Both the position numbers and the translations under genes were made by a program. Shown here in pieces: positions 18,673 to 55,076 of a stretch of 64,000 nucleotides of DNA (its first letter is position 1; each line of letters opens with the position of its first letter). Source of the DNA: Candidatus Hydrogenedentota bacterium (GTDB taxonomy: Bacteria > Hydrogenedentota > Hydrogenedentia > Hydrogenedentales > SLHB01); the NCBI GenBank assembly GCA_020848835.1, contig JADLHJ010000011.1:10862-74861 (forward strand), in the 5' to 3' direction. The notes beneath the pieces were generated by a model. It saw only the letters and a program-made list of their open reading frames with translations. It was not told the DNA's origin and ran no database searches.

Positions 18673-20205
18673 TTACCACGTGTAATGCACGAGATAGGTG
18701 ACCTTCTTTTCCTCATCCGGCTGCAACGGCACGCGAAATTCGATCGTTTGCGCGTCAGTCTTCTCGAATTGCATGGACGGGCTGCGGATTTCCCAGTTGG
18801 TCCCGCGGTAGAGATGCTCGACAACACGAATCTCCGCGGCCTCCTTCTTCCGATTGCGCAACTTTATCTCGAACATTTCATCTACCCAATGCGCGTTGTA
18901 GTCCATGCTGTAGCTGACCTGCTTGCGCTCGCCTACCAGGTCGAACGCGTCGCCGGTATAGACGCGCACGGTTTCGCCCTGCGGCGTGTGGGTGATGACA
19001 TTCTCGCCCGTGAATTCCAGTTGGCCGCTGGCCGCGCCGCTTGCGCTTACCTCCGGCGCCGCTTCGTCGCGCTGATAGAAACGCGTTTTACCCGCGGGAA
19101 GCGGAATACCAAGTCCATTCTCCTTCGTGTTTTCGAACTCGCGCATAACCCATACGAGCTTGTTCGATTGCGTACCGTAATCGCGCTGCTGCATGAGCTG
19201 TTCTGTGCCCCAGCCGCGATATTGATTCGGATCGATCTTGGTCCCATCGTAGACATAGAATCGGGTCGAGGTGATGCCGTCTGCACGGACGAACTCGACT
19301 TGCTTCGTTTCGCGATCGCGTAGTGTAGTCGCGCGCTCAACGGTATAGAGGTGATACTCGTCAAACGATTTCTCGCTAACTGTCGGCTCGAACCCGCCGC
19401 GTGACCTCCGCTCGCCGCTGATCGAGAAATCGTTCAACATCTGGTTTTCCGGCTGAAGCTTACTCACATTGCCCGCCATAAGTTTTATCTGCGCATTTTC
19501 AAAGGTCTTGCCGCTCTGGTTGTCCATCGTCACCCAACCGACGAGATCCACTTTGTCTCCTTCCTTCGGCGCGACAAAGTTGTAGCTCGCTTCCCAGCTC
19601 ATCCCGCCGGTGAGGTAACCGATCTCCGCATCGAGGGCGCCTGCCGTATCCGACTCAAGCGTCCAAGTTAATGAGGGCTTTAGAATCGTGTCATCGGGGA
19701 TTGCGGGGAACAACGGCTGCCCAGGCAGACCAAAGTGCAACTTGCCATAGATCTCGATGATCGGTTGCGAGGCCCCGCCGTAGGCATAAGCTTGTTGCAT
19801 CATCTGATATTGCTGCCCATATCGCTGCATGGCAGCGTCGCCGTGCGGCGCATAATTACTGCGTACAACACGTCCCTGCACGATGTCCCGCTGATCGCCA
19901 TTTTGAATGATGAAGTCGATAAACTTGCCTTCATTCAGTTTTAGCAATAGCTCAGTCGAAAGCTGATCCGCCCGGTAATTTTGTTCGAGAATGCGAATAT
20001 TCGCCTTACCTGCTGGATCGCGCAGCATTACGGAATCGGGTTCAAGGTGGGCCGTCGTATCATTGAACGTGACCTGATTGACCCCGTGTTGCAAGTCGAG
20101 GTGAATGCTCTCCCTAACGACACCAAAGCGCTGATTGTAAATCGTCACGGAGGGTTCCGCCGCCGCAAACGCAGTAGCGGCAAGTAGGACGAAGATTGGA
20201 CGCAT
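18673..20205 (-). CDS. secreted DUF4140/DUF4139 (TIGR02231-like) protein
   Basis: N-terminal VTIYNQRFGVVRESIHLDLQHGVNQVTFNDTTAHLEPDSVMLR matches the DUF4140 pattern. ATG at 20205 is preceded by AGGAG. Signal peptide MRPIFVLLAATAFAAA. Confidence 0.6.
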   Translation of the reverse strand: MRPIFVLLAATAFAAAEPSVTIYNQRFGVVRESIHLDLQHGVNQVTFNDTTAHLEPDSVMLRDPAGKANIRILEQNYRADQLSTELLLKLNEGKFIDFIIQNGDQRDIVQGRVVRSNYAPHGDAAMQRYGQQYQMMQQAYAYGGASQPIIEIYGKLHFGLPGQPLFPAIPDDTILKPSLTWTLESDTAGALDAEIGYLTGGMSWEASYNFVAPKEGDKVDLVGWVTMDNQSGKTFENAQIKLMAGNVSKLQPENQMLNDFSISGERRSRGGFEPTVSEKSFDEYHLYTVERATTLRDRETKQVEFVRADGITSTRFYVYDGTKIDPNQYRGWGTEQLMQQRDYGTQSNKLVWVMREFENTKENGLGIPLPAGKTRFYQRDEAAPEVSASGAASGQLEFTGENVITHTPQGETVRVYTGDAFDLVGERKQVSYSMDYNAHWVDEMFEIKLRNRKKEAAEIRVVEHLYRGTNWEIRSPSMQFEKTDAQTIEFRVPLQPDEEKKVTYLVHYTW

Positions 20206-20326
20206 GGCAATACTCCTGTTCCCCTGCATATGACACCAAGGTGCCGGCGCAGGTTCGGGGACTTTTTGTACGGACACAATCGTTTTACACTATATCCAAC
20301 GATTTGTAACCTGGATTGTTTAACGC

Positions 20327-20557
20327 ATGGACACGCAGTTCTTGGGACGCGCCCTTATTGGCCTTGGCCTGCTAATCGTTGTGGCGGGATTGGTCGTCTA
20401 TTTTGGAGGCAAGATAGGTTTTTTCGGGCTTGGCAAACTGCCCGGCGACGTGCAGGTAGAGCGAGAAAACTTCAGGTTTTACTTTCCGATCACAACTTCG
20501 ATTATCGTCAGCGTTATACTGACGCTTTTGCTTACGCTATTCGCCAAGCTACGGTGA
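20327..20557 (+). CDS. DUF2905 small membrane protein
   Basis: 76 aa with two TM segments and GKLPGDVQVEREN motif. Confidence 0.65.
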   Translation: MDTQFLGRALIGLGLLIVVAGLVVYFGGKIGFFGLGKLPGDVQVERENFRFYFPITTSIIVSVILTLLLTLFAKLR

Positions 20558-22345
20558 TGTAGGCTCCGGCAGTTTTCGATTCGCGACCAACATCAGTTCT
20601 TTAAACTCAATTGGTCCGGCGAGCACTTCATACGACTTTATTCCCGCGACTTTGATCAAGCTTTGGCGGGTTAGGTAAATATAAGGTTTCTCGCCCGCAA
20701 ATTTTTCCTGTACGCGCGCGGGACTTTGCTCGAGAGGGATGACCGTCTGAGCGTAAAAATCAAACGCGGGATAAACTTTCGACGATTCGACCGTATAGCC
20801 GGCATTAACGTACTGCGCAGCGCGAATCGCAATTCTTTTGGGTGATTCGTCGCCGGTATTCTCGTCGCCGCGCGAGATGAGAAACAACAGGATTGCGCAC
20901 AACGACGCAATAAAAACACCCGCGCTCCGGTAGGTATGGCTGCGAAGCGAAATCAGGCACGCAGCCAATCCCAGCGCTGCGAGCGGGAGAATAAGCGCGA
21001 ACAGGCCTACAGAGAAATGCTCAACGGCGACATATACGACGCCGCCAAGCAACGCGACAATGAGCAGGACCAGCGCGCCAATTTGCCAATACTTGCACCA
21101 ACGCTCCATCCACGGTGATAACAAACCCGTGTCGATTTGAGCGACATGATGGCCAAGCGCGATAGCCATAAACGGAATGCAAGGCAGGATATACTCATAT
21201 TCTTTACCGGCAATCAACGAAAATACGAGTACGCTCAGCCACGATACCAATACGCAAAAACGATACATATCGCTTTGCCGCTCCCATTCGCGCTTCGAGA
21301 ACTGTAGCGGGAGCAAGAATCCCCAAGGCGCGAGCATGGGACCGATCATGACGAGGAAATACCAAGGCGCGCCACTGTTGATCTCGCTCGCGACGTAGGT
21401 ACGCTCCACAACTTGATTGTTCAGCATCGCGCGAATGCTGTCCCAGCCCATCGTGTGGAGTACCGCAAGCCCCCAAGGAAGCGCGAGCAGAACGCCAATC
21501 AGCATTGCGCCGAGCCAAATCCCGATGACCGAGAGCGGCAATCCGGAATAGCGCAATGCGAGAAACGCCCAGACCAGCATCACCACGACGAGCGCAATTG
21601 GTGCGCTGACCAGATTCGCATACGCCGGCAGCACGCGCGAGGCAAGAACCTTTAGTAGTACTTCCAAACCAAAAGCCGCGACGCTGACCTTGATTCCGAT
21701 GTTCATCACGCGTCCCAGTTGCGGACTGCTCGCCACGAGTGTCGCAACAAGACCTGCCCCAAAAAACAAAAATGGGACCGGCCCTTTTAACATCACCGCC
21801 GCGCCGAACGAAACACCGGATAAAATGCAAAAACGAATCCGCTGCTGCACGGGGTCGCTCAAGGTTGCGTTACGTGCAAAAAGAATGGCGAGAAATGTTG
21901 CGAGCGTGAGGGGAATATCCAGCTCCGCAAATCGCATACGCTGGAACGCGTATGGTGACGCCAACAGCGCGAGTGCGCCCCAACGTGCCGCGCGCTCTCC
22001 TGCTGCTTTTCGCGCAAACAGGTACATCGATACGACCAACGCCGCGCCACAAAGGGCCGTAGGCACACGCGCCGTGAATTCAGAAACACCCGCCACGGAA
22101 TAAACGCCCGCAATGGCCCAATACAGCAGCGGCGGTTTCACGAGATAGGGTTCGCCGTTTAGACGCGGAATGATGTAGTCGCCGGTGCGCAGCATGGTAG
22201 CGGGCGGCGCGGCGCGCTGACCTTCGTTATCCTCCCGCACGTCGCCCACGCCCAATGCGTAGAACACCGCGACAAGCGCGACGCAAAGCAGCACGATCCA
22301 GAATCGATTACCCATTCCCCGATAAGTCCCGAAACAACCAGCCAT
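20549..22345 (-). CDS. GT39/ArnT-like glycosyltransferase (polyprenyl-phosphate sugar transferase family)
   Basis: Multi-TM protein with the N-terminal GT39 pattern DxxxEGxRAxxAxxMLxTGDYIIPRLNGEPYLxKPPLLYW. Confidence 0.75.
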   Translation of the reverse strand: MAGCFGTYRGMGNRFWIVLLCVALVAVFYALGVGDVREDNEGQRAAPPATMLRTGDYIIPRLNGEPYLVKPPLLYWAIAGVYSVAGVSEFTARVPTALCGAALVVSMYLFARKAAGERAARWGALALLASPYAFQRMRFAELDIPLTLATFLAILFARNATLSDPVQQRIRFCILSGVSFGAAVMLKGPVPFLFFGAGLVATLVASSPQLGRVMNIGIKVSVAAFGLEVLLKVLASRVLPAYANLVSAPIALVVVMLVWAFLALRYSGLPLSVIGIWLGAMLIGVLLALPWGLAVLHTMGWDSIRAMLNNQVVERTYVASEINSGAPWYFLVMIGPMLAPWGFLLPLQFSKREWERQSDMYRFCVLVSWLSVLVFSLIAGKEYEYILPCIPFMAIALGHHVAQIDTGLLSPWMERWCKYWQIGALVLLIVALLGGVVYVAVEHFSVGLFALILPLAALGLAACLISLRSHTYRSAGVFIASLCAILLFLISRGDENTGDESPKRIAIRAAQYVNAGYTVESSKVYPAFDFYAQTVIPLEQSPARVQEKFAGEKPYIYLTRQSLIKVAGIKSYEVLAGPIEFKELMLVANRKLPEPTSP

Positions 22346-22352
22346 CTACCCT

Positions 22353-22387
22353 AGAACACAAAAAACGCCCGGCATCTCGCCGGGCGT
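22353..22387 (-). terminator. rho-independent terminator after gene 22412..23188
   Basis: Minus strand reads ACGCCCGGCGAGATGCCGGGCGT followed by TTTTTGTGTTC. Confidence 0.55.
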
Positions 22388-22411
22388 TATGAACATATTG
22401 TCGAGCTACGC

Positions 22412-23188
22412 CTACTTACCGTTAATCGAACCTTTGCGCGCTTTCTTAATCATATCGCCTGAGTAAGGATTGCCTTCCTTCACCCGCTCATCGGCCTTCG
22501 CTGCATCGTCCGCGTCTTTCCATTCGCCGGTATACTTGAGTCCACCGGGTCGCGGTGTGTTGCGATCGCGCGCGTCTGCAGGCCATTTCTGCTTAGAGAA
22601 TTTCGCAGCGGCGCGCGCAACCTCTGCCCGTTCTTCCGGCGTCATTGCATATCGATCGACTTCCGATTGCGCGACAGTCACAGCGCCCGGACCAAACACC
22701 GCGCCCACACTACCGGCGCCGCCGTAGTAAAAGATCGCCGCAGTAGACGGCAAATCCGCCAGCGCGGCGAGGCGCCGATCCGAATCGATGAATTCGTTCG
22801 CGGGATGCGTCTGCTCGACTGGAAGTGGATACTGCCCGGCCATGCCCATATAGGTGCCCGCACCGATTTCAACGAGACCGCGGCGAACACCACGAAAAAC
22901 CTGCACGCCACCACCAACGCGACCCGCTTTCTGCTCGCCTTCGTTTACGGTAAAGCGAAATTGATACTTAAACGCTTTAAGACCGCGCCAAAAGGCTTTG
23001 AAAGGACGCGTTGCTGGTTCTTCAGGATTGCCGTACTTGCCCCAGTGTGAAGGTTCGATTGCCGTGCGCGGCTCGGATCTTGTGCTCTTGTGTCCCCAGC
23101 TCATCGCTGGCGGCGTCAAATCATCTACCGCACCGGCCGTAAACGAGACGGCGCAGGCCGCCGCTATCAGGAGTCTCATCCGCTTCAT
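22412..23188 (-). CDS. secreted hypothetical protein
   Basis: Signal peptide MKRMRLLIAAACAVSFTAGA. 258 aa. No recognisable domain. Confidence 0.5.
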   Translation of the reverse strand: MKRMRLLIAAACAVSFTAGAVDDLTPPAMSWGHKSTRSEPRTAIEPSHWGKYGNPEEPATRPFKAFWRGLKAFKYQFRFTVNEGEQKAGRVGGGVQVFRGVRRGLVEIGAGTYMGMAGQYPLPVEQTHPANEFIDSDRRLAALADLPSTAAIFYYGGAGSVGAVFGPGAVTVAQSEVDRYAMTPEERAEVARAAAKFSKQKWPADARDRNTPRPGGLKYTGEWKDADDAAKADERVKEGNPYSGDMIKKARKGSINGK

Positions 23189-23333: not shown

Positions 23334-24815
23334 TTATTCTGCCACGGTGATGGCAAGCGTAGGCCGCCCTCTCTCGCCGGAAATTGCCGACGCCCAATAC
23401 CACGCACTCGCGTCGGGCCACGATTCTGTGTCTTTGAGCCAATCGTTCAATTCGCCGCCTTGGGGGTGGTCCCAGTTCAGCGCGATATAACATTCACGCA
23501 CACTTGTCTGGCTGCCATCCGGGCCTCGATACCAAAACCTGCTCCAGAGGCGTCCGGCCTCGTCGCGAAATGTCGGCTGTGGCGTGCATGTTCCGCCCTG
23601 GGCAAGATAGCAGTTTTGCGCTGAGTGCAAGTCACGTGTCGGCCCATCGCATAATCGCAGCAGTACATGCCTCTTGCCGTCGTGCCACCGAAATTGTGCA
23701 GACTGGCCGGGCACGTCCTGAAGCCAGGCCTTCATAGCGCCGGTCTCTTCAACGGGCTCCAACCATTTACCGTTCCATGTTTGCGGCCATGCTATCGCGC
23801 GATGCGATACTTGCGACGGTTTTGATGCAGCTTCGCTTACGCCAGAACGCACACCCGCCACCACGCACCCCATCACAAAACATACCGAGAGCAATCTCCC
23901 GGCGGGCAGCCTTGGCCACACGAGGTGCCGTCTTGCGTCCAGCCTCTTCCAACTTCTGATTCCGTTTGCGATCACTAGAAGGAGCAACGCGCATTCCGCG
24001 AACACGATAATCCCTAAAACACCGTGCTCGGGATAGTCCGGCCCGATTCCTGCCACGTACAGCGTTGCCGCGCGGTGGGCGTTCCCGAAAATCGCAAGTG
24101 CAAAAGATATTGCTATTAGAAGCGCAGTGCGCAACGGATTAAATTGGTACAGCACTGCGACACCCGCGCCCATCGCGATTGACGCCGAAAGCATGCGCAC
24201 GCCACTGCATGGCGCGTCCACAAAAAACGTCGTCGCGCCGTTTGACAGCGCGGTCCCCTCCGCCCGAATTTCCGGCCCCAGCATGAACGCAGCGATGTTA
24301 CTCGACGCCACGCGCAATGGAAATCCGATGAAGAAATCGAGCGATGTCGCAACGTGGACACATAGCAGCATTAGCACCGCGATCCCCCACGCGCCCCGCC
24401 GCGATCTTGATGCGAGCGTTCCCATCATGGTGCATCCGACAATTCCAGCAGCCAACTCACACCGAACCAACTGAGGCGCAGTAGGCCAAGTCAGCGCATA
24501 CAACCCTAACAGCACAACCGCCGCGATCAACCAACCGCGCGCCGGGGCAACGCGCAAAGGACCGCCCGACGGGCCCGTGATCAGGAACAGCCACGCGCCA
24601 ACGGCGAACAGAGCGATGACCGCGCCCATCGGCGATCCCCACGGCGCAAACCAGCGTATCCACAACTCGGGCGCTGCGGCCCAGACCGCGGCGACACTTG
24701 CCAAGACCCAAGAGAAGCCAATCAAAGTTTGGAGCGCGACGCGCTGCGGCGGCACGATCTTTGGGTGTGCGTGCATCACCAGCACGTCAATTGCTTTATT
24801 GGCGGCAGAACCCAT
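23334..24815 (-). CDS. exosortase (EpsH/Xrt family) fused to a C-terminal EpsI-like domain
   Basis: Eight-TM core with active-site motif FFVDAPCSGVRMLSASIAMG (exosortase Cys-Ser-Gly-Arg). C-terminal about 190 aa carry an EpsI-like LHSAQNCYLAQGG motif (compare HSPxxCLPGxGW). ATG at 24815 lies 2 nt after the upstream stop (TGA AC ATG). Confidence 0.75.
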   Translation of the reverse strand: MGSAANKAIDVLVMHAHPKIVPPQRVALQTLIGFSWVLASVAAVWAAAPELWIRWFAPWGSPMGAVIALFAVGAWLFLITGPSGGPLRVAPARGWLIAAVVLLGLYALTWPTAPQLVRCELAAGIVGCTMMGTLASRSRRGAWGIAVLMLLCVHVATSLDFFIGFPLRVASSNIAAFMLGPEIRAEGTALSNGATTFFVDAPCSGVRMLSASIAMGAGVAVLYQFNPLRTALLIAISFALAIFGNAHRAATLYVAGIGPDYPEHGVLGIIVFAECALLLLVIANGIRSWKRLDARRHLVWPRLPAGRLLSVCFVMGCVVAGVRSGVSEAASKPSQVSHRAIAWPQTWNGKWLEPVEETGAMKAWLQDVPGQSAQFRWHDGKRHVLLRLCDGPTRDLHSAQNCYLAQGGTCTPQPTFRDEAGRLWSRFWYRGPDGSQTSVRECYIALNWDHPQGGELNDWLKDTESWPDASAWYWASAISGERGRPTLAITVAE

Positions 24816-24817
24816 GT

Positions 24818-27550
24818 TCACGCGCGCCTTAACTGCTGCCTGCGCTGGTAGGCCACCCACGCGAGCACAATACACACAACAACAATCAACGCCCACTCGT
24901 GTGGCTCCGGCACGCCGGGTATTGCCTCTTCGTTTTTCGTGGGATCAAGACCGTGCCGCGCGTATTGTTCCATCGTTTCAAGCACGACGGCGCCGGAGAG
25001 CGGCGTTACCAACCGCGCTTCAATGGCAACCTGACGGAGCGCGTCAATCTCGTTCGACTGGTGGCTCTGCACTGCTCGCATGACAGCATCATTCACGGCC
25101 AGTCGCACAAGATGGCTTGCAGGGGGCTCAATTGCGGTTTGCACCGCAGCGTCAGAGACACCCATGGCAAACTTCGCGGAAACGGATTCTGGGGATCGTA
25201 TTTTGACGACCTGCGAAATTGTTTCTTCCAACGATTCGAATATGGGCACACGCTCGATAATCGCGAGATCGCTGCATTGCTCCAATAAGCGGTTCGGCCC
25301 GGGGACGGCCTCTATCGAGAGTATCTTCACACTCGCGCCACCGCGTCTGCGCTCCCACTGCCGCAGTGGTTCAACGGAAGATAGTTCGACCGGCAACGGT
25401 CCATGAACCCAAATCACCGTACCGCCGCTACCCGCAATATCGCAGGCATGCACAAGCGCCGGCACCTGATCGCAACCGCCTACATACTCGCGCGACGCCA
25501 GCCACTCTCCCAGCGTGGTCGAAGGCGCTGACGATTTATCTTCATAAGTCTCGACCTTGCTTCCCGCAAGCACTGCATTAACATCGACGTCGTCAGGCAC
25601 AGACGACAGAATAGACTCCCAAGGGATGTTTGTATCGCGCATCGACGCCGATCCATCCACCACGAAGCATATCGGATGCTTGCTGCCCGCATTCGGCAAC
25701 TGGCGCGTCATCGTCGCTGATTGAGTTCCCAACGTACCGAGGAAAATATCGTCCGACGTATAGGAAGCAGATACATTGATCGTTCCAGCGTCTACGCGCT
25801 GAAGATCGTTTTCAGCCAATGCGCCGCGCAACGCAATACGCCCGGGCGCCGGCTCTTCCCACTGGAGCGATTTCGACGAAGCCTCGACACCGGCATCGCA
25901 TTCCACCCATACCCCATGTGAAAACTCCGGCGGAACCGTAAAATTGCGTTCGGAGATATACGGCAAACGCAGGTAGGATTTTCCGTCGCGCTCGACTATA
26001 GGCGCGGTAACGCCGATCTTCAGTTTCATCGTGCTGTGGGCATTGATCGGAAAACATTGCAGGAGCACCTTATCGGGACCGCACACATTTAGTAACGCAG
26101 GATCGCGCCGCTGCACGACTGCCACGCTTTGATACGCCTGGCGCACCTGGTCGCGCCCGCCAAACGCGGCTTCGCGTTCTTCCCCGTTAATCCAAAGCGT
26201 CAACCTGCTGGCAACGGCACCGTGCGGCAAGTCAATCTGTGCGCGGGCCTCGCGCTGCCTCCCGGACGCGTTGTTGAACTCAATCGTCCATTCCATATAG
26301 GCGAGGTGCGGCGATCCTTCCGCACCCAGGCGCATGATGTTTACATCCATCGTGCTCGCGTGCAGGGACAATCCGTGCACGCGGCCTGCAACACTGGTTC
26401 CGCCGATTTCGCTGTCAGTCACGCGAGCGTCTTCAAAATCCTCAGCCATCAGGGTGCGTGTACGAAACGTGCCGCGCGTGTCCGGTCGCGGCACGGCGTT
26501 ATATGGCACGCCTGTCACGCGAAAATACAAGTCGCGACAAGCGCCTTGGCGCGCAATGTCTTCGGCGGTCCAACGTCGCGTGGGCCCAATCCCGCGCACA
26601 ATCGGCGAATAACACGTCAACAACACCTGATGTTCGAGATGAAGGTTACGAATGAGGGCGATGCCGCGGTCGCGTTCAGAGGGATTCTCGCTCAGTGCCA
26701 TTGGAATCACTTGTGCGGCAATGAGCCGCGGCCCCGCGTAGATTGAACCCGCCGCAATCACCAACAGAGTGCCCGCAGCCGAATACCAGACTGCCTTAGC
26801 CCAGTGCGTGGAAGTTTCCGCGCGCAACCGGTAAAGCGCGCGCATTTGGAACAGGCCCGCAATGAGACAGAACAGCGGTGAAAAGCCCATTATCCCCAAG
26901 CCGAAAGCCAGAAGCGCAAAAACAGCGATCGGCAAAATAGGGATATACACCGCCGCATAAATCAGCGAGAGAGTTGTTGCGTATGCGTTGGCAAAAAATA
27001 CGGCGTTGTGCCAACGCGCGATCACCTGAGAACTTTCAGCGGGCTTGCGCGTAAGCATGTACAGGAAGACGTCTGTCGCAAGTATGGAAGCCAGCAGCAA
27101 GACGCCGGCGGCAAGGTGCCACGCGGTGGGAATCGGATCGGCGTACAACTCCGCCATGGCCCCCATCGAAAGCTCGAACATCAGGGAGAGCGCGGGAATG
27201 ACTAAACCACAGAGAATTACAAAACTGCGGCCGCTCACCGAATAGATCGGCCTCACTTTTTTCAACCGCTCCTCTACCGCAACGTGCGATCGCCCGTTGC
27301 CATTTGATCGCGCGACGCTATCGCCGGCGACGTCGGCAACCTGTTCTGGCGTGCCGATGCTGGCAATGGCATGTTTCACGTGGACGTCTGTGACGAGCAG
27401 TGGCGATTTACCTTCTGCTTCTGTGCGGATGTGTTGCTTCAGCCCGTCGACGATTTCGTCTGCGTCGTCGCCGTTTGCGCGCGACAACGCGTCTACCCGC
27501 GCGAGATATTCGTTCAGTTGCTTCTCGGCCTCGGGAGTCCATTGCGTCAT
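24818..27550 (-). CDS. HAAS(DUF1700)-like N-domain, multi-TM, VIT-like plus vWA, PEP-CTERM-tailed protein
   Basis: Residues 1-75 (AEKQLNEYLARVDALS...DEIVDGLKQHIRTE...IASIGTPEQVA) have the HAAS/DUF1700 pattern. About six TM helices at residues 105-285. VIT-like block at about 385-520 (TIEFNN, LWINGEE). vWA MIDAS DGSASM at 632-637. Terminal GVPEPHEWALIVVVCIVLAWVAYQRRQQLRRA is a PEP-CTERM-type sorting signal. Confidence 0.75.
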   Translation of the reverse strand: MTQWTPEAEKQLNEYLARVDALSRANGDDADEIVDGLKQHIRTEAEGKSPLLVTDVHVKHAIASIGTPEQVADVAGDSVARSNGNGRSHVAVEERLKKVRPIYSVSGRSFVILCGLVIPALSLMFELSMGAMAELYADPIPTAWHLAAGVLLLASILATDVFLYMLTRKPAESSQVIARWHNAVFFANAYATTLSLIYAAVYIPILPIAVFALLAFGLGIMGFSPLFCLIAGLFQMRALYRLRAETSTHWAKAVWYSAAGTLLVIAAGSIYAGPRLIAAQVIPMALSENPSERDRGIALIRNLHLEHQVLLTCYSPIVRGIGPTRRWTAEDIARQGACRDLYFRVTGVPYNAVPRPDTRGTFRTRTLMAEDFEDARVTDSEIGGTSVAGRVHGLSLHASTMDVNIMRLGAEGSPHLAYMEWTIEFNNASGRQREARAQIDLPHGAVASRLTLWINGEEREAAFGGRDQVRQAYQSVAVVQRRDPALLNVCGPDKVLLQCFPINAHSTMKLKIGVTAPIVERDGKSYLRLPYISERNFTVPPEFSHGVWVECDAGVEASSKSLQWEEPAPGRIALRGALAENDLQRVDAGTINVSASYTSDDIFLGTLGTQSATMTRQLPNAGSKHPICFVVDGSASMRDTNIPWESILSSVPDDVDVNAVLAGSKVETYEDKSSAPSTTLGEWLASREYVGGCDQVPALVHACDIAGSGGTVIWVHGPLPVELSSVEPLRQWERRRGGASVKILSIEAVPGPNRLLEQCSDLAIIERVPIFESLEETISQVVKIRSPESVSAKFAMGVSDAAVQTAIEPPASHLVRLAVNDAVMRAVQSHQSNEIDALRQVAIEARLVTPLSGAVVLETMEQYARHGLDPTKNEEAIPGVPEPHEWALIVVVCIVLAWVAYQRRQQLRRA

Positions 27551-27915
27551 GGTTTACCTTCCTTTTCCAACAAGCTGCCGATGTCGTTGGCCAATCCGCA
27601 CCAATAGGTCCGCATAGCATGCACGGTCCTACGTCCTTCATCGGTAAGAACGTAATATTTCCGCGCGGGACCGTTAGAGGATTCTTCGAGACGCGATGTG
27701 ATGAGGCCCGCACTGCGCAGGCGGGATAGGAGCGGATAAATGGTACCTTCGGTGATGACCAAAGCTTTGATGTTGGCGAGACGCTTCACTAGATCATAAG
27801 CGTACATCTCACCCTCGGCCAAAACGGCGACGATGCACAGCTCAAGCAATCCCTTCCGGACCTGGGTCACCCAATTGTCCAGGTCGAATGCAGTCGGCTT
27901 GGGCTCGGTATGCAT
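27547..27915 (-). CDS. PadR family transcriptional regulator
   Basis: Winged-helix motif LELCIVAVLAEGEMYAYDLVKRL...GTIYPLLSRLRSAGLI...KYYVLTDEGR. Overlaps the downstream gene by 4 nt (ATGA). Confidence 0.85.
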   Translation of the reverse strand: MHTEPKPTAFDLDNWVTQVRKGLLELCIVAVLAEGEMYAYDLVKRLANIKALVITEGTIYPLLSRLRSAGLITSRLEESSNGPARKYYVLTDEGRRTVHAMRTYWCGLANDIGSLLEKEGKP

Positions 27916-27951
27916 GTATTAATTCTAATACAAACTACCTTGTTATGCAAG
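27916..27951 (-). promoter_or_regulatory. candidate PadR operator palindromes abutting the padR start codon
   Basis: GTATTA-ATTC-TAATAC perfect palindrome at 27916-27931, directly 5' of the ATG. Second palindrome CCTTG-TTATG-CAAGG at 27937-27951. Confidence 0.3.
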
Positions 27952-28036
27952 GAAATCTTTCGCCGATAATGAAGCCCGGGACGCGGGGGTTACTCCCCGC
28001 CTCCCGGCTAATTACCACACCGCAAGAGACTTACGA

Positions 28037-28672
28037 CTATTTGGTGCGTTTTCGAAGACCCATCGCAGCGAGTCCCAGGCCGAGCAATCCGACAGTGGCC
28101 GGCTCTGGAACCACGCAACCGTTTAGGCTACCGGCATAGACACTGTCGTCGCAGGGACCTTGAGTCCATTTTACTGCGGCTGTGTTGCAGGAGAAGTCGT
28201 GGCATCCGCCAGTTGGCAGACCGGTGAAAAAGTCGAGCGTATCTAAATTGCTGCCAGTGACGAGGAAAGTTACGGTCACATCGTTTCCATTGGTGAGACC
28301 CCAGTTTCCCCAACCCATGTCGAACTCGTAGTCGTAGGTGCCGAAGGGGCCTGCGGTGGAATTGGGAGTAAGCGATGTGTTCGAAAGCGGGCCGTCGCTG
28401 AGAATAGACATCGACGTTACGTCGCTCGACACATTGAAATACAATTCGGAGAGCGTATAGTCGTTCGGCCAACTGGTCTGGTTGAATATCTGCATCGTCA
28501 ACACATTGCTGCCGGCGTCGAAGCCCCAGATCACTTCGGCGTCAAACACGCCTGCGTTCGGCTGATCGTTATCGCTCAACTGCCCGCTAAACAGAATGAC
28601 TTCCGCGTTCGCGGATAATGTGGCAATGGCGATCAGCGCCAATGTCAGGATGGGTAAATAACGTGTCTTCAT
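28037..28672 (-). CDS. PEP-CTERM sorting-domain protein
   Basis: Signal peptide. C-terminal VPEPATVGLLGLGLAAMGLRKRTK. Confidence 0.8.
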   Translation of the reverse strand: MKTRYLPILTLALIAIATLSANAEVILFSGQLSDNDQPNAGVFDAEVIWGFDAGSNVLTMQIFNQTSWPNDYTLSELYFNVSSDVTSMSILSDGPLSNTSLTPNSTAGPFGTYDYEFDMGWGNWGLTNGNDVTVTFLVTGSNLDTLDFFTGLPTGGCHDFSCNTAAVKWTQGPCDDSVYAGSLNGCVVPEPATVGLLGLGLAAMGLRKRTK

Positions 28673-29032: not shown

Positions 29033-29815
29033 TTAGGCGCGTTTCATGCGACGGCGCAAACCGGCCGCGGCGAGGCCGAGTCCGAGTAACGCGAGGCTGG
29101 AGGGTTCGGGAACAACGACTTGCACGTCGCCTTCCGTAATCGCCCACTCTTCAAATCCGCCGTTGTTGTTCTCGTTCACGCCGAAAAGCGAGTAGAGATA
29201 AACATACTCATCCCCAGTTGCGAACACGCTGCTCGGAACATAGAACAGCATGTCGCCACTGCCGCTACCACTGTTGAGATTCGCATCAACGAGGATATAT
29301 GAATCTTCCACTGCGTCAAGGTCGTAAACGAGCGTAGAGTCCGCCAAGTCGATAATGCCGGCTGTAAATGTCTCCGCACTCTGATTCGGCGTGCCCGACG
29401 TGAAGATCTGAATCTCATCCAGCGAAATAAAGGAGTCGCTACCCGACTGGTTCACGTCCAGAATAAATTCGCGATACTCGACACCATCGATTACGACAAC
29501 CGGGATATCCGTCAGTAAAAGTTCATGGTTGAAGTTGTCAGGCGCACCATTGTCGAGCGTTCCGTTTTCGGTGGTGTTATACGCCTGAACCGTGTCCGTA
29601 TTATTACCGATCTGCACAAAGCTATCGATCGTTCCAGTACCTGTTGCCTGCCCGTCCCACTGAAGAAACAAGGCGCCATTGACTTCGCCTTCGGACCCTA
29701 CAGTTGTAAGATCGACGGTTTCTGCTGAAACGACACCGGCGAAGGCCAACGCGCTCAGCATTAGAATTGTTGATTGAATTCCTCGCCGCATACTCATTTT
29801 CATCATCCTTTGCAT
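29033..29815 (-). CDS. PEP-CTERM sorting-domain protein
   Basis: C-terminal VPEPSSLALLGLGLAAAGLRRRMKRA. Signal peptide after MQRMMKMSMRRGIQSTILMLSALAFAGVVSA. Several in-frame ATGs lie between 29789 and 29815. Confidence 0.8.
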   Translation of the reverse strand: MQRMMKMSMRRGIQSTILMLSALAFAGVVSAETVDLTTVGSEGEVNGALFLQWDGQATGTGTIDSFVQIGNNTDTVQAYNTTENGTLDNGAPDNFNHELLLTDIPVVVIDGVEYREFILDVNQSGSDSFISLDEIQIFTSGTPNQSAETFTAGIIDLADSTLVYDLDAVEDSYILVDANLNSGSGSGDMLFYVPSSVFATGDEYVYLYSLFGVNENNNGGFEEWAITEGDVQVVVPEPSSLALLGLGLAAAGLRRRMKRA

Positions 29816-30129
29816 TGTGACACTTAGCAGCTCGCCCACACTGCGGATGAATGAGCAAACCGCATGCCGAAGGCTAATAACGGGCTTTGTACGCCGAAAT
29901 ATTGCTACGGAAATGTAAAAGGAACGCGCCAAGGCGAGTGACAACAATATCTTAGGAAAAACATAGGGGTATTGCCGGAAGGCGTAGGAAATCGTAGCGA
30001 AAACTCGTAGGAAATCACAACTGCATGCGATAAAGCCGACAAAGCCCTGATAAAGGTTATTCAGCGTTGCACAATAGTTTCATAGTATAGTTGTATATAT
30101 AAACAAATCAACCGCCCAAATCAATTCTA

Positions 30130-52879: not shown

Positions 52880-52952
52880 ATCCTACAAGTGGTGGTAAGG
52901 GTCAAATCTGCTGGTTCTGCGGATTTGCCAATATTGATGCAAGGAGAATCTG

Positions 52953-53630
52953 ATGAAATTCCGCTTTTTATTTGGCGTGGTGCTGGTCGCCGTCGCGTGC
53001 TTTGCGCCTGCCGGCGCTGAAGTCATTTATGACAACGGGGATTCCATCCAGTCAATTGGTTTGCCTGGGATTGATCCCTTTTTCATGCCCGCAGATAATT
53101 TCGTGCTGCAAACTGGCGCAAGCACAATCACGGAGTTCCATTGGACGGGTTATTACGCATTGAATGAAGTCGATAAAGTTGTTCCTATCGACGATTTCAC
53201 CGTCTACATTTTCGCGGACAATGGGGGCAGCCCGGGCACCCAACTTTTCAGCTTCGATGATGCCGTGACCGCCACCGCGACCGGCACAAATGCCTTGGGT
53301 ATTTTTCCCGAGTATGAATATGTGATGGCGATTGATCCCTTGGCGCTCACCGCGGGTACAACGTACTGGATCGGAATCCTGAACGATATTACGTTTCCGG
53401 ATCCTGTTAAGGGCGTAACTCCTGTTCAAAACGCTTGGTTCTGGTCTACGTCGCAAGTACAGACTGGCGATGCGCACCAAAAGTTTGTGACCGCCTGGCT
53501 TGACGCGAATGTTGAATTGGCCTTTGACTTACACGGTCCCGGCGTAGTCCCAGAGCCTGCGACGATGACATTGCTGGGTGCTGGACTCGTGGCGATCGCA
53601 GCGCGCCGCAGATTCATGCGCGGGAAATAG
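52953..53630 (+). CDS. PEP-CTERM sorting-domain protein
   Basis: Signal peptide. C-terminal VPEPATMTLLGAGLVAIAARRRFMRGK. Paralog of 54426..55076 (shared DVIYDNGD and FHW motifs). Confidence 0.8.
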   Translation: MKFRFLFGVVLVAVACFAPAGAEVIYDNGDSIQSIGLPGIDPFFMPADNFVLQTGASTITEFHWTGYYALNEVDKVVPIDDFTVYIFADNGGSPGTQLFSFDDAVTATATGTNALGIFPEYEYVMAIDPLALTAGTTYWIGILNDITFPDPVKGVTPVQNAWFWSTSQVQTGDAHQKFVTAWLDANVELAFDLHGPGVVPEPATMTLLGAGLVAIAARRRFMRGK

Positions 53631-54364: not shown

Positions 54365-54425
54365 ACTCTCCTTACGCATTCTTAGGCTGTGTTCTGGGTA
54401 AACAAAAAATAGAGGTGGGAGAGTT

Positions 54426-55076
54426 ATGACAAAGACACTAGCGCGCATGGCGATGGTTGTCCTCCTGCTGCTCGGCGCTGTGTCGAGTCAGGCGGACGTC
54501 ATCTATGACAACGGAGATCCTTCGGGATACATCGCTCCGACGAGCAGCTATCTGCTCACGATTCTGGATGACTTTGAACTTGAGACGGGTGCATCGACCG
54601 TTACCGATTTTCATTGGTATGGCGCGTACTATGGTGATGTTCCCGCCGAAGACGATTTCACGCTGTACATCTTCGACGAAAACTTCAACCTTGTAACCGA
54701 GATCGATGGCAGCGGCACCACGCGCACTGCGACCGGTGAAACCGTTGACGTTCCGGTCTTTGGCGGCGACTACGACGAGTATTACTACGAACTCTTCGTG
54801 GATCCGATCAACCTCACGGCAGGTTCGACCTATTACCTCGGTATCGCCAATGCCAATAATGCAGCGTGGGCCTGGGAAGGTACCGACAATGTGTTCGACG
54901 GTTTTGCGCTTTGGTATCAGCCGGAAAACGAATTTGAAGACGTCGGCCTGGGTGACTTCTCGTTCCAGATCACTGGCGACGGTACGACCGGCGTAGTTCC
55001 GGAACCGGCTTCGATGACGCTGCTTGGCCTTGGCTTGGTGGTAGTCGCCGCGCGCAGGAAGTTTTCGCGCAGCTAA
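54426..55076 (+). CDS. PEP-CTERM sorting-domain protein
   Basis: Signal peptide. C-terminal VPEPASMTLLGLGLVVVAARRKFSRS. Confidence 0.8.
   Translation: MTKTLARMAMVVLLLLGAVSSQADVIYDNGDPSGYIAPTSSYLLTILDDFELETGASTVTDFHWYGAYYGDVPAEDDFTLYIFDENFNLVTEIDGSGTTRTATGETVDVPVFGGDYDEYYYELFVDPINLTAGSTYYLGIANANNAAWAWEGTDNVFDGFALWYQPENEFEDVGLGDFSFQITGDGTTGVVPEPASMTLLGLGLVVVAARRKFSRS

Follow-up and report, generated by a model that had tools for sequence, protein, structure and literature searches.

Exosortases are widespread and poorly understood, and we know of no acceptor identified for the transfer reaction of bacterial exosortase systems. A 64,000-nucleotide (nt) stretch of DNA from a Candidatus Hydrogenedentota bacterium (GTDB SLHB01; contig JADLHJ010000011.1, assembly GCA_020848835.1), hereafter called the window, carries in a row padR, a gene for a 910-amino-acid (aa) membrane protein and an exosortase gene. 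This locus raises the question of what a transcriptional regulator has to do with a protein-sorting enzyme. Our analysis favors, with a probability of about 0.6, an autoregulated dedicated exosortase system made of two separable modules, one for regulation and one for sorting.

A three-gene operon made of two separable modules

The three genes lie head to tail on the minus strand (Table 1). The stop codon of padR and the start codon of the 910-aa gene overlap as ATGA, and the TGA of the latter is followed by two nucleotides (ac) and then by the ATG of the exosortase gene. The exosortase open reading frame (ORF) spans 23334-24896 from a GTG, and its likelier start is the ATG. An earlier interpretation drawn from the letters of the DNA and their translations, which we call the sequence-only reading, had described these three ORFs, the 4-nt overlap and the 2-nt gap, and all were confirmed at their positions. 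It had also seen in the operon a PadR regulator, a membrane protein with the usual PadR partner domain and an exosortase, and the domain matches presented below bear this out. The top database match is a protein that is 100% identical and comes from a Candidatus Hydrogenedentes metagenome-assembled genome (MAG).

Relatives of the 910-aa protein form at least 196 clusters at E < 1e-5 and were found in more than 555 scanned species genomes. We compared 85 loci, namely, the best 80 genome loci and 5 distinct ones from exact-protein look-ups, using stop-to-stop ORFs and hidden Markov models (HMMs) built from the PadR and the exosortase of the window. A HAAS-type N terminus was present in 63 of the 85 homologues (loci L005 and L085 were placed in this class on account of their padR, the HAAS domain of L005 being backed by a precomputed Pfam match). 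padR was directly upstream in 59 of the 62 HAAS-bearing loci with a readable upstream region, usually overlapping the downstream gene or within 10 nt of it. The other 22 homologues begin at the first transmembrane (TM) helix, and padR preceded none of the 19 whose upstream region could be read (Fisher p = 1e-15).

The exosortase gene followed another pattern. It was directly downstream in 19 of 19 readable HAAS-less loci versus 17 of 55 HAAS-bearing ones. Those 17 loci are labelled Hydrogenedentota, Omnitrophota, Planctomycetota/Phycisphaeraceae, Synergistaceae, Myxococcota and, in one case, Verrucomicrobiota, and several are unclassified. Most Verrucomicrobiota homologues keep padR and HAAS with no adjoining exosortase, and the sorting module occurs without HAAS and PadR in Pyrinomonadaceae, Desulfomonile and others. 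A rough neighbor-joining tree of the core region of the family contained a clade with all three genes, which includes the window, a mixed clade in which HAAS and PadR are present or absent and the exosortase is always there, and a large Verrucomicrobiota clade with HAAS and PadR and no adjoining exosortase. Each module can occur without the other. padR and the exosortase gene are linked to this protein family in other genomes as well, and the three-gene arrangement is far beyond chance and recurs in many phyla.

Two observations concern individual loci of the comparison set. In L043, a divergent TetR-like gene is found upstream of the HAAS-bearing gene instead of padR. The labels of several MAG records look implausible because PEP-CTERM/exosortase systems belong to outer-membrane bacteria; this concerns L011, L018, L063 and L066 (Bifidobacteriaceae/Bifidobacterium), L057 and L086 (Heliomicrobium) and L083 (Akkermansia muciniphila). 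Proteins labelled Bifidobacterium fall within the Verrucomicrobiota clade and those labelled Heliomicrobium or Akkermansia within the mixed clade, and these records are probably misbinned or mislabelled.

The exosortase is paired with the 910-aa protein

The C-terminal tail of the protein in the window and its closest relatives contains PEPHEW. Across the family, the PEP motif was followed by E in 32 of 36 loci with an adjoining exosortase and in 3 of 37 loci without one (Fisher p = 6e-13), and the tails of the latter resemble classical PEP-CTERM sequences (PEPGTWALLGLGL...). A PEP-type tail was found in 118 of the 120 listed proteins, nearly every HAAS-bearing homologue keeping one.

The pairing was also seen from the side of the enzyme. 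In a reciprocal search that started from the accessory domain of the exosortase (see below), a gene of the VIT family ended at the exosortase start in 27 of the 30 metagenome loci with enough upstream sequence to be counted. Of the other three, two had a different PEP-tail protein upstream and one had none, which brings the loci with any PEP-tail protein to 29 of 30.

The window itself encodes four small classical PEP-CTERM proteins [28037-28672(-), 29033-29947(-), 52938-53627(+) and 54402-55073(+)], with VPEP[AS]..LLGLGL..RR tails that are clearly unlike PEPHEW. No second exosortase was found in the 64 kb, and a general exosortase/PEP-CTERM system is presumably encoded elsewhere in the genome. 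As judged within the window, the 910-aa protein and its exosortase are a dedicated enzyme-substrate pair in the sense of Haft (PMC3237569), in keeping with the proposal of the sequence-only reading.

Exosortases of the same subfamily were found beside other proteins at two loci. One lies next to a 686-aa protein with a signal peptide and a PEPEMF tail (L160:3056-5113) and the other next to an 825-aa protein with a TPEPAAC tail (L138:2538-5012). Neither protein matched the HMM of the five-TM/VIT core. Going by these neighbors, the subfamily may serve more than one substrate family.

A candidate PadR operator overlaps the putative promoter

A palindrome with a 7-5-7 layout, TACCTTG-N5-CAAGGTA, emerged from the aligned upstream regions of padR. 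In the window, TTCCTTGCATAACAAGGTA is the only site with at most two mismatches to it. Sites with at most three mismatches were present within 160 nt upstream of padR in 33 of 58 loci, whereas random 160-nt windows drawn from these loci did as well in about 2% of cases. Across 1.12 Mb of locus sequence there were 16 sites with at most one mismatch, 13 of them within 200 nt upstream of padR and the remaining 3 likewise upstream of padR operons.

The candidate operator spans the -35 hexamer, TTGCAT, of a putative sigma-70-type promoter. The candidate -10 hexamer, TAGAAT, ends 6 nt ahead of the padR ATG, and the transcript would be near-leaderless. At several Verrucomicrobiota loci, TTGACA is followed by a -10 hexamer that falls on the left half-site (TACTAT). 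These overlaps suggest that PadR represses its own operon through promoter occlusion. Such self-repression would match the behavior of the Listeria PadR repressors LstR and LltR, which chiefly control their own operons, and these encode membrane proteins (PMC6624303).

In several padR loci with no good palindrome within 160 nt, extra genes precede padR. L003, L014, L036, L044 and similar Verrucomicrobiota loci have at least one co-directional small gene ahead of it (173-aa and 251-aa ORFs in L003). The palindrome sits farther upstream in such loci, 677 nt in L036, and the operon can therefore be longer there. A second palindrome in the window, TGTATTAGAATTAATACA (18 bp, 27913-27931), abuts the padR start; its right arm is not kept in the orthologous, 80%-identical locus L001, and it is probably fortuitous.

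The 910-aa protein joins a HAAS domain to a VIT-vWA ectodomain

An AlphaFold model of the 910-aa protein, computed with 43 homologues as input, reached a predicted local distance difference test (pLDDT) score of 89.2 and a predicted template modeling score (pTM) of 0.79. In order, it contains N-terminal helices (residues 6-71), a disordered linker (76-96), five membrane helices, a helical stalk, a beta-sandwich, an alpha/beta domain and a last helix (883-909).

The N terminus matched the Pfam HAAS model (PF22564) at residues 14-73 with 29.4 bits, for a cut-off of 27. Its three helices (6-25, 30-48 and 55-71) were modeled with pLDDT >90, and its GxP motif is conserved, with G66 in 37 and P68 in 35 of the 43 family sequences. 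Fourteen of the 43 members matched HAAS at E < 0.01, the best at 7.7e-8. In the paper that defined it, HAAS always occurs beside a standalone PadR winged helix-turn-helix (wHTH) protein, and signal transfer was proposed to go through the GxP groove (PMC11237479). Here too, a three-helix domain with GxP adjoins a gene for a standalone PadR wHTH protein. The co-occurrence of the two and the conserved operator speak for a putative physical and functional coupling of HAAS to PadR in this system.

The membrane domain was predicted to have five helices (105-129, 143-168, 174-216, 220-246 and 250-285), and hydropathy and loop charges agree with an N-in, five-span topology. The sequence-only reading had counted about six. 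Five is retained because an odd number is needed to place the VIT-vWA part outside and the Arg-rich C terminus inside. Conserved motifs of this domain include FDPxPT and FGLGLLPLSP. Homology to the membrane region of MSEP-CTERM proteins is indicated by a match of their model (TIGR04286) to residues 182-236.

The VIT domain was detected by Pfam at residues 416-512 (30.7 bits, cut-off 26.5) and in 43 of 43 family members. No Pfam vWA model matched the 910-aa protein, and VWA_3 matched 2 of the 43 relatives. The best Foldseek match of the ectodomain in the PDB was 6fpy, inter-alpha-inhibitor heavy chain 1 (ITIH1), with an E value of 1.8e-18 over about 592 columns. The metal ion-dependent adhesion site (MIDAS) motif is complete, DGSAS at residues 632-636; in the family, D632 is invariant, S634 is found in 37 of 43 members, and the third serine is not conserved. 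As modeled, the ectodomain is a complete ITIH-like VIT-vWA module despite the silent Pfam vWA models. Three of the earlier domain calls hold: the HAAS/DUF1700-like N terminus and the VIT-like domain both gave significant HMM matches, and the vWA domain is supported by its predicted fold, the ITIH1 match and the MIDAS motif.

For the proposed PEP-CTERM-like tail, the features themselves stand, namely, VPEP, a hydrophobic helix and RRQQLRR, and P881-E882-P883 is invariant across the family alignment. The corresponding HMMs (PF07589 and TIGR02595) failed to recognize it in the 910-aa protein at E <= 0.1, and PF07589 matched 15 of the 43 members.

The exosortase belongs to an uncurated subfamily with an accessory domain

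The exosortase scored above the cut-offs of PF09721 (61.6 versus 25.7 bits) and TIGR04178 (35.7 versus 23). It contains DAPCSGVR, an instance of the APCSGxR motif that had been pointed out earlier. Residues R168, D200-A-P-C203-x-G205 and H264 are invariant or nearly so in the family, and with its signature domain, multiple TM helices and conserved Cys, Arg and His, the protein belongs to the exosortase/archaeosortase superfamily. The named systems (XrtN, XrtQ, XrtT, XrtO, XrtA, XrtD and others) were considered and set aside, as every score was under the curated cut-off; the values were 62.1 versus 270 for XrtQ, 53.1 versus 250 for XrtT and 48.9 versus 200 for XrtN. The exosortases of HAAS-less relatives reached 143-173 bits with the XrtQ model, still under its cut-off.

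The C-terminal part of the enzyme is an accessory domain, modeled as one TM helix and an alpha/beta domain of about 165 aa (pLDDT 83). In 36 related loci, it is fused to the exosortase in 14 and encoded by a separate gene in 22, the catalytic and accessory genes of the split form encoding about 290 aa and about 180-215 aa, respectively. The sequence-only reading had called the fused domain EpsI. This label was not upheld, since neither this domain nor 13 homologues matched EpsI/DUF3485 (TIGR02914, PF11984) at E <= 5 in Pfam and NCBIfam searches, while 13 of these 14 domains matched the C-terminal part of the XrtT model. A profile search with the accessory domain returned 356 homologues, of which the best 120 have no Pfam domain and are nearly all 150-190 aa long. 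The exosortase is a member of an uncurated subfamily with an accessory domain that Pfam leaves unannotated.

The family of the accessory domain comprises at least 356 unannotated proteins, the free-standing ones being mostly of about 170-180 aa. Two alignments (A2 and A3) show complete or near-complete conservation of W343-P344, R387, R394, H397, C402 and the motif SW.D.SAWYWA. To judge from this conservation, the invariant His and Cys might form a catalytic, metal-binding or contact site.

Both halves resemble known systems

The regulatory half is of the same kind as the HAAS-PadR dyads (Ravi et al. 2024, PMC11237479) and the Listeria LstR and LltR systems (PMC6624303), in which a standalone padR lies directly upstream of the gene for a membrane protein with a three-helix, GxP-containing HAAS domain, in an operon under its own control. 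Such dyads were put forward as an alternative to two-component signaling, and HAAS has been reported fused to PspC, LiaI-LiaF-TM, Toastrack, FtsX/MacB, FtsW/RodA, VanZ and uncharacterized 2-, 4- and 6-TM domains (PMC11237479). VIT, vWA, PEP-CTERM and exosortase are not mentioned in the text or one text supplement of that paper. Unlike in the published dyads, the sensor here would be an ITIH-like ectodomain and at the same time a substrate for sorting.

The sorting half is closest in layout to the XrtN system, formed by XrtN and the XrtN system VIT protein (TIGR04476 and TIGR04477), and to MSEP-CTERM (TIGR04286), in which a dedicated exosortase lies beside one large multi-TM VIT protein with a C-terminal signal. 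These two gave the best NCBIfam matches of the 910-aa protein, at 149.3 bits versus a cut-off of 250 for the XrtN system VIT protein and 50 versus 150 for MSEP-CTERM. The earlier comparison with XrtN-type pairs is thus not borne out as an assignment, as both the target and the enzyme score below the XrtN cut-offs. To judge from the alignment coordinates of the model, the start of the XrtN target seems to lie about 77 residues further in, and an N terminus of HAAS size is probably missing from it. We know of no PadR in XrtN or MSEP-CTERM systems. The nearest named exosortase models are XrtQ (NF012182) and XrtT (NF033770); XrtT shares homology with the accessory domain in its C-terminal part, but the enzyme falls under both cut-offs. 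The accessory domain also recalls EpsH/EpsI (XrtA-type), where a single-TM periplasmic domain is fused to the C terminus of the exosortase or encoded by the next gene; it holds the position of EpsI but does not match the EpsI models. Sequence comparison relates the sorting pair to the XrtN, XrtQ and XrtT systems and makes it a member of none.

Two more distant parallels involve the ectodomain. ITIH chains are cleaved at their C terminus and transferred covalently to a glycan. No other structure matched the whole ectodomain, comprising VIT, vWA and the C-terminal region, as well as ITIH1 did, but the identity is 11%, neither the chemistry nor the enzymes of cleavage and transfer are related, and we regard the likeness as an analogy only. 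The Gram-negative sortase with a VIT-vWA LPXTG target, and its GlyGly-CTERM and PEP-CTERM variants (Haft and Varghese 2011, PMC3237569), likewise have a VIT-vWA protein as the lone substrate of an adjoining enzyme, the C-terminal sorting signals being interchangeable among VIT/vWA proteins. That enzyme is of another class, and its substrates are not described with five TM helices, HAAS or PadR.

The sequence-only reading knew of no target that carries HAAS and is co-transcribed with padR. Our full-text literature search found no meaningful link between exosortases and PadR or HAAS, in agreement with that statement, and no paper pairing an exosortase with a VIT domain, XrtN, XrtQ, XrtT or MSEP-CTERM. 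Exosortase and PadR are both named in two papers, each word once or twice. The combination is undescribed in the literature searched; both halves are of known kinds, and it is not categorically new.

A proposed autoregulated sorting system and its alternatives

The reading that we prefer, at the odds given above, is a dedicated sorting system that regulates its own expression in response to the envelope or to a ligand. The 910-aa protein would sit in the inner membrane with its five TM helices and expose its ITIH-like VIT-vWA part to the periplasm, the PEP-CTERM-type C-terminal helix forming a second tie to the membrane. The co-transcribed exosortase, with its Cys-containing DAPCSG motif and periplasmic accessory domain, would cleave at the PEP motif and, by analogy with other exosortase/archaeosortase systems, most probably pass the new C terminus of the ectodomain to an envelope acceptor. 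After transfer, the ectodomain would still be anchored via the N-terminal TM domain.

The regulatory module (PadR, HAAS and the operator) would be an addition at the N terminus of the substrate and upstream of its gene. PadR would bind the palindrome over the promoter and repress its own gene and those of the substrate and the exosortase. As proposed for HAAS dyads, a change in the state of the TM domain or the ectodomain would make HAAS bind PadR or let it go, and expression of the operon would then track an envelope signal or ligand binding. Binding and repression by PadR, the HAAS-PadR contact, cleavage by the exosortase and what the signal and the acceptor are belong to the inferred part of this scheme.

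Several points weigh against this scheme. The HAAS score is barely over the Pfam cut-off, and the 14 members mentioned above are the only ones that reach E < 0.01. HAAS-bearing L041, L043 and L070 have no detectable padR directly upstream. About 40% of the padR upstream regions contain no good palindrome within 160 nt. The promoter was assigned by eye and was not flagged by a consensus scanner, because its -35 hexamer matches the consensus at just 3 of 6 positions. The PEP-CTERM HMMs are silent on the tail of the 910-aa protein. The evidence is wholly computational, and cleavage and transfer by exosortases of this subfamily are predictions.

It may also be, although we consider it unlikely, that PadR is gated by exosortase processing. 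Once the tail is removed or transferred, the TM and HAAS domains would change conformation and release or capture PadR, and the operon would sense the maturation of its own substrate. The translational coupling of the three genes in one operon fits this idea, as does the finding that the triad carries at least five different phylum-level labels and appears on two branches of the tree. The near-universal PEP-type tail does so as well, since it makes processing always possible. On the other hand, all of the 19 HAAS-less systems have an exosortase and no PadR, and 38 of the 55 HAAS/PadR loci have classical tails and no adjoining exosortase. A processing gate agrees with the near-universal presence of the PEP tail in HAAS-bearing proteins, but the data do not require it, and we regard it as improbable. 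In its most developed form, the operon would be a self-processing-gated transmembrane signaling device, in which anchor removal or transfer, or tension on the ectodomain, acts through the five TM helices on HAAS and then PadR; as a description of the whole operon, this seems doubtful to us. In the tension variant, the ectodomain would be tethered between the inner membrane and an acceptor in the outer envelope, and mechanical pull would set the activity of PadR. Taken jointly with anchor removal, this variant is given only a small chance.

Less probable still, the 910-aa protein would not be cleaved at all. It would be a stable partner or scaffold of the exosortase that, for example, presents or recognizes a polysaccharide acceptor via its vWA/MIDAS site, the PEP-like helix being a second anchor. 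The failure of the PEP-CTERM HMMs on its tail and the conserved five-TM domain, unusual in a sorted surface protein, would suit a scaffold. So would the third MIDAS serine, which is poorly conserved, so that ligand binding may not be the central function. The invariance of P-E-P across the family and the covariation of the tail type with the dedicated enzyme argue for cleavage instead. So do the curated families of the same architecture, the XrtN system VIT protein and MSEP-CTERM, which are annotated as sorted substrates, and the exchange of GlyGly-CTERM, PEP-CTERM and LPXTG signals among VIT/vWA homologues (PMC3237569).

Finally, a reading in which the N-terminal helical domain is not a PadR partner, padR being a neighboring autoregulator or unrelated and the remainder an ordinary dedicated exosortase pair, would fit the marginal HAAS score (29.4 versus 27 bits) and the many family members with no precomputed HAAS match but is strongly disfavored and very improbable, given the almost perfect covariation of this domain with padR (59/62 versus 0/19), the overlap of the start and stop codons, the conserved GxP, the three-helix model with pLDDT >90 and the conservation of the operator together with the HAAS-padR pair.

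Under the autoregulated-system reading, the operon offers a compact and tractable case, with a single enzyme, a single substrate with an ITIH-like ectodomain, a single repressor and a single 19-bp operator. Its promoter would serve as a genetic reporter of exosortase function if the activity of PadR depends on what state the substrate is in. The HAAS-PadR dyad would be extended to an extracytoplasmic VIT-vWA sensor and to phyla without model organisms (Hydrogenedentota, Omnitrophota, Planctomycetota and Verrucomicrobiota). An uncurated exosortase subfamily and a new accessory domain unannotated in Pfam are defined as well. Were processing to gate PadR after all, the operon would be the first case in which exosortase activity is read out by transcription, and it would sense the envelope in one step by a new logic.

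Features and surroundings of the operon

Table 1. Genes, domains and candidate control elements of the operon, with the ORF that follows it (positions in the window; residues refer to the encoded protein)
Feature	Position	Strand	Description
Candidate PadR operator	27936-27954	-	TTCCTTGCATAACAAGGTA; one mismatch from TACCTTG-N5-CAAGGTA; 21 nt upstream of the padR ATG
Putative sigma-70-type promoter	27922-27950	-	TTGCAT (27945-27950), 17-nt spacer, TAGAAT (27922-27927); read by eye
padR	27547-27915	-	122 aa; single-domain PadR-like winged-helix regulator; Pfam PadR PF03551, 72.6 bits
Gene for the 910-aa membrane protein	24818-27550	-	ORF and domain matches
HAAS domain, residues 1-73	27332-27550	-	Predicted cytoplasmic; three helices; GxP is G66-T-P68
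Predicted five-helix TM domain, residues ~102-285	26696-27247	-	AlphaFold, hydropathy and loop charges
Predicted ITIH-like ectodomain, residues ~394-870	24941-26371	-	VIT beta-sandwich, vWA with MIDAS, C-terminal helical part
PEP-CTERM-type tail, residues 879-910, and stop codon	24818-24916	-	GVPEPHEWALIVVVCIVLAWVAYQRRQQLRRA; VPEP, hydrophobic helix, RRQQLRR
Exosortase gene	23334-24815	-	493 aa from the ATG at 24815; ORF matches PF09721 and TIGR04178
Exosortase catalytic membrane domain, residues 1 to ~290	23946-24815	-	PF09721, TIGR04178
Exosortase accessory domain, residues ~296-493	23334-23930	-	One TM helix and alpha/beta periplasmic domain of ~165 aa (predicted)
Downstream 258-aa ORF	22412-23188	-	Lineage specific; starts 145 nt past the exosortase gene; no Pfam or NCBIfam match

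An Rfam scan of the whole 64-kb window found no RNA family. The 258-aa ORF that follows the exosortase gene is possibly the last gene of the transcription unit. A terminator-like hairpin (22364-22388), with an 11-bp GC-rich stem and a T-run, comes after it and is probably the operon terminator. Homologues of this ORF were found only in the close Hydrogenedentota relatives L001/L002 and L007. Farther downstream [18673-22345(-)] are genes for a DUF4139 protein and a PMT/ArnT-type glycosyltransferase, which are syntenic only in L001. The 258-aa ORF, the DUF4139 gene and the glycosyltransferase gene were considered as members of the module and rejected, being conserved or syntenic only in close relatives. 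The flanks of distant homologues differ and include LtaS/GT2 genes, ABC transporters and others.

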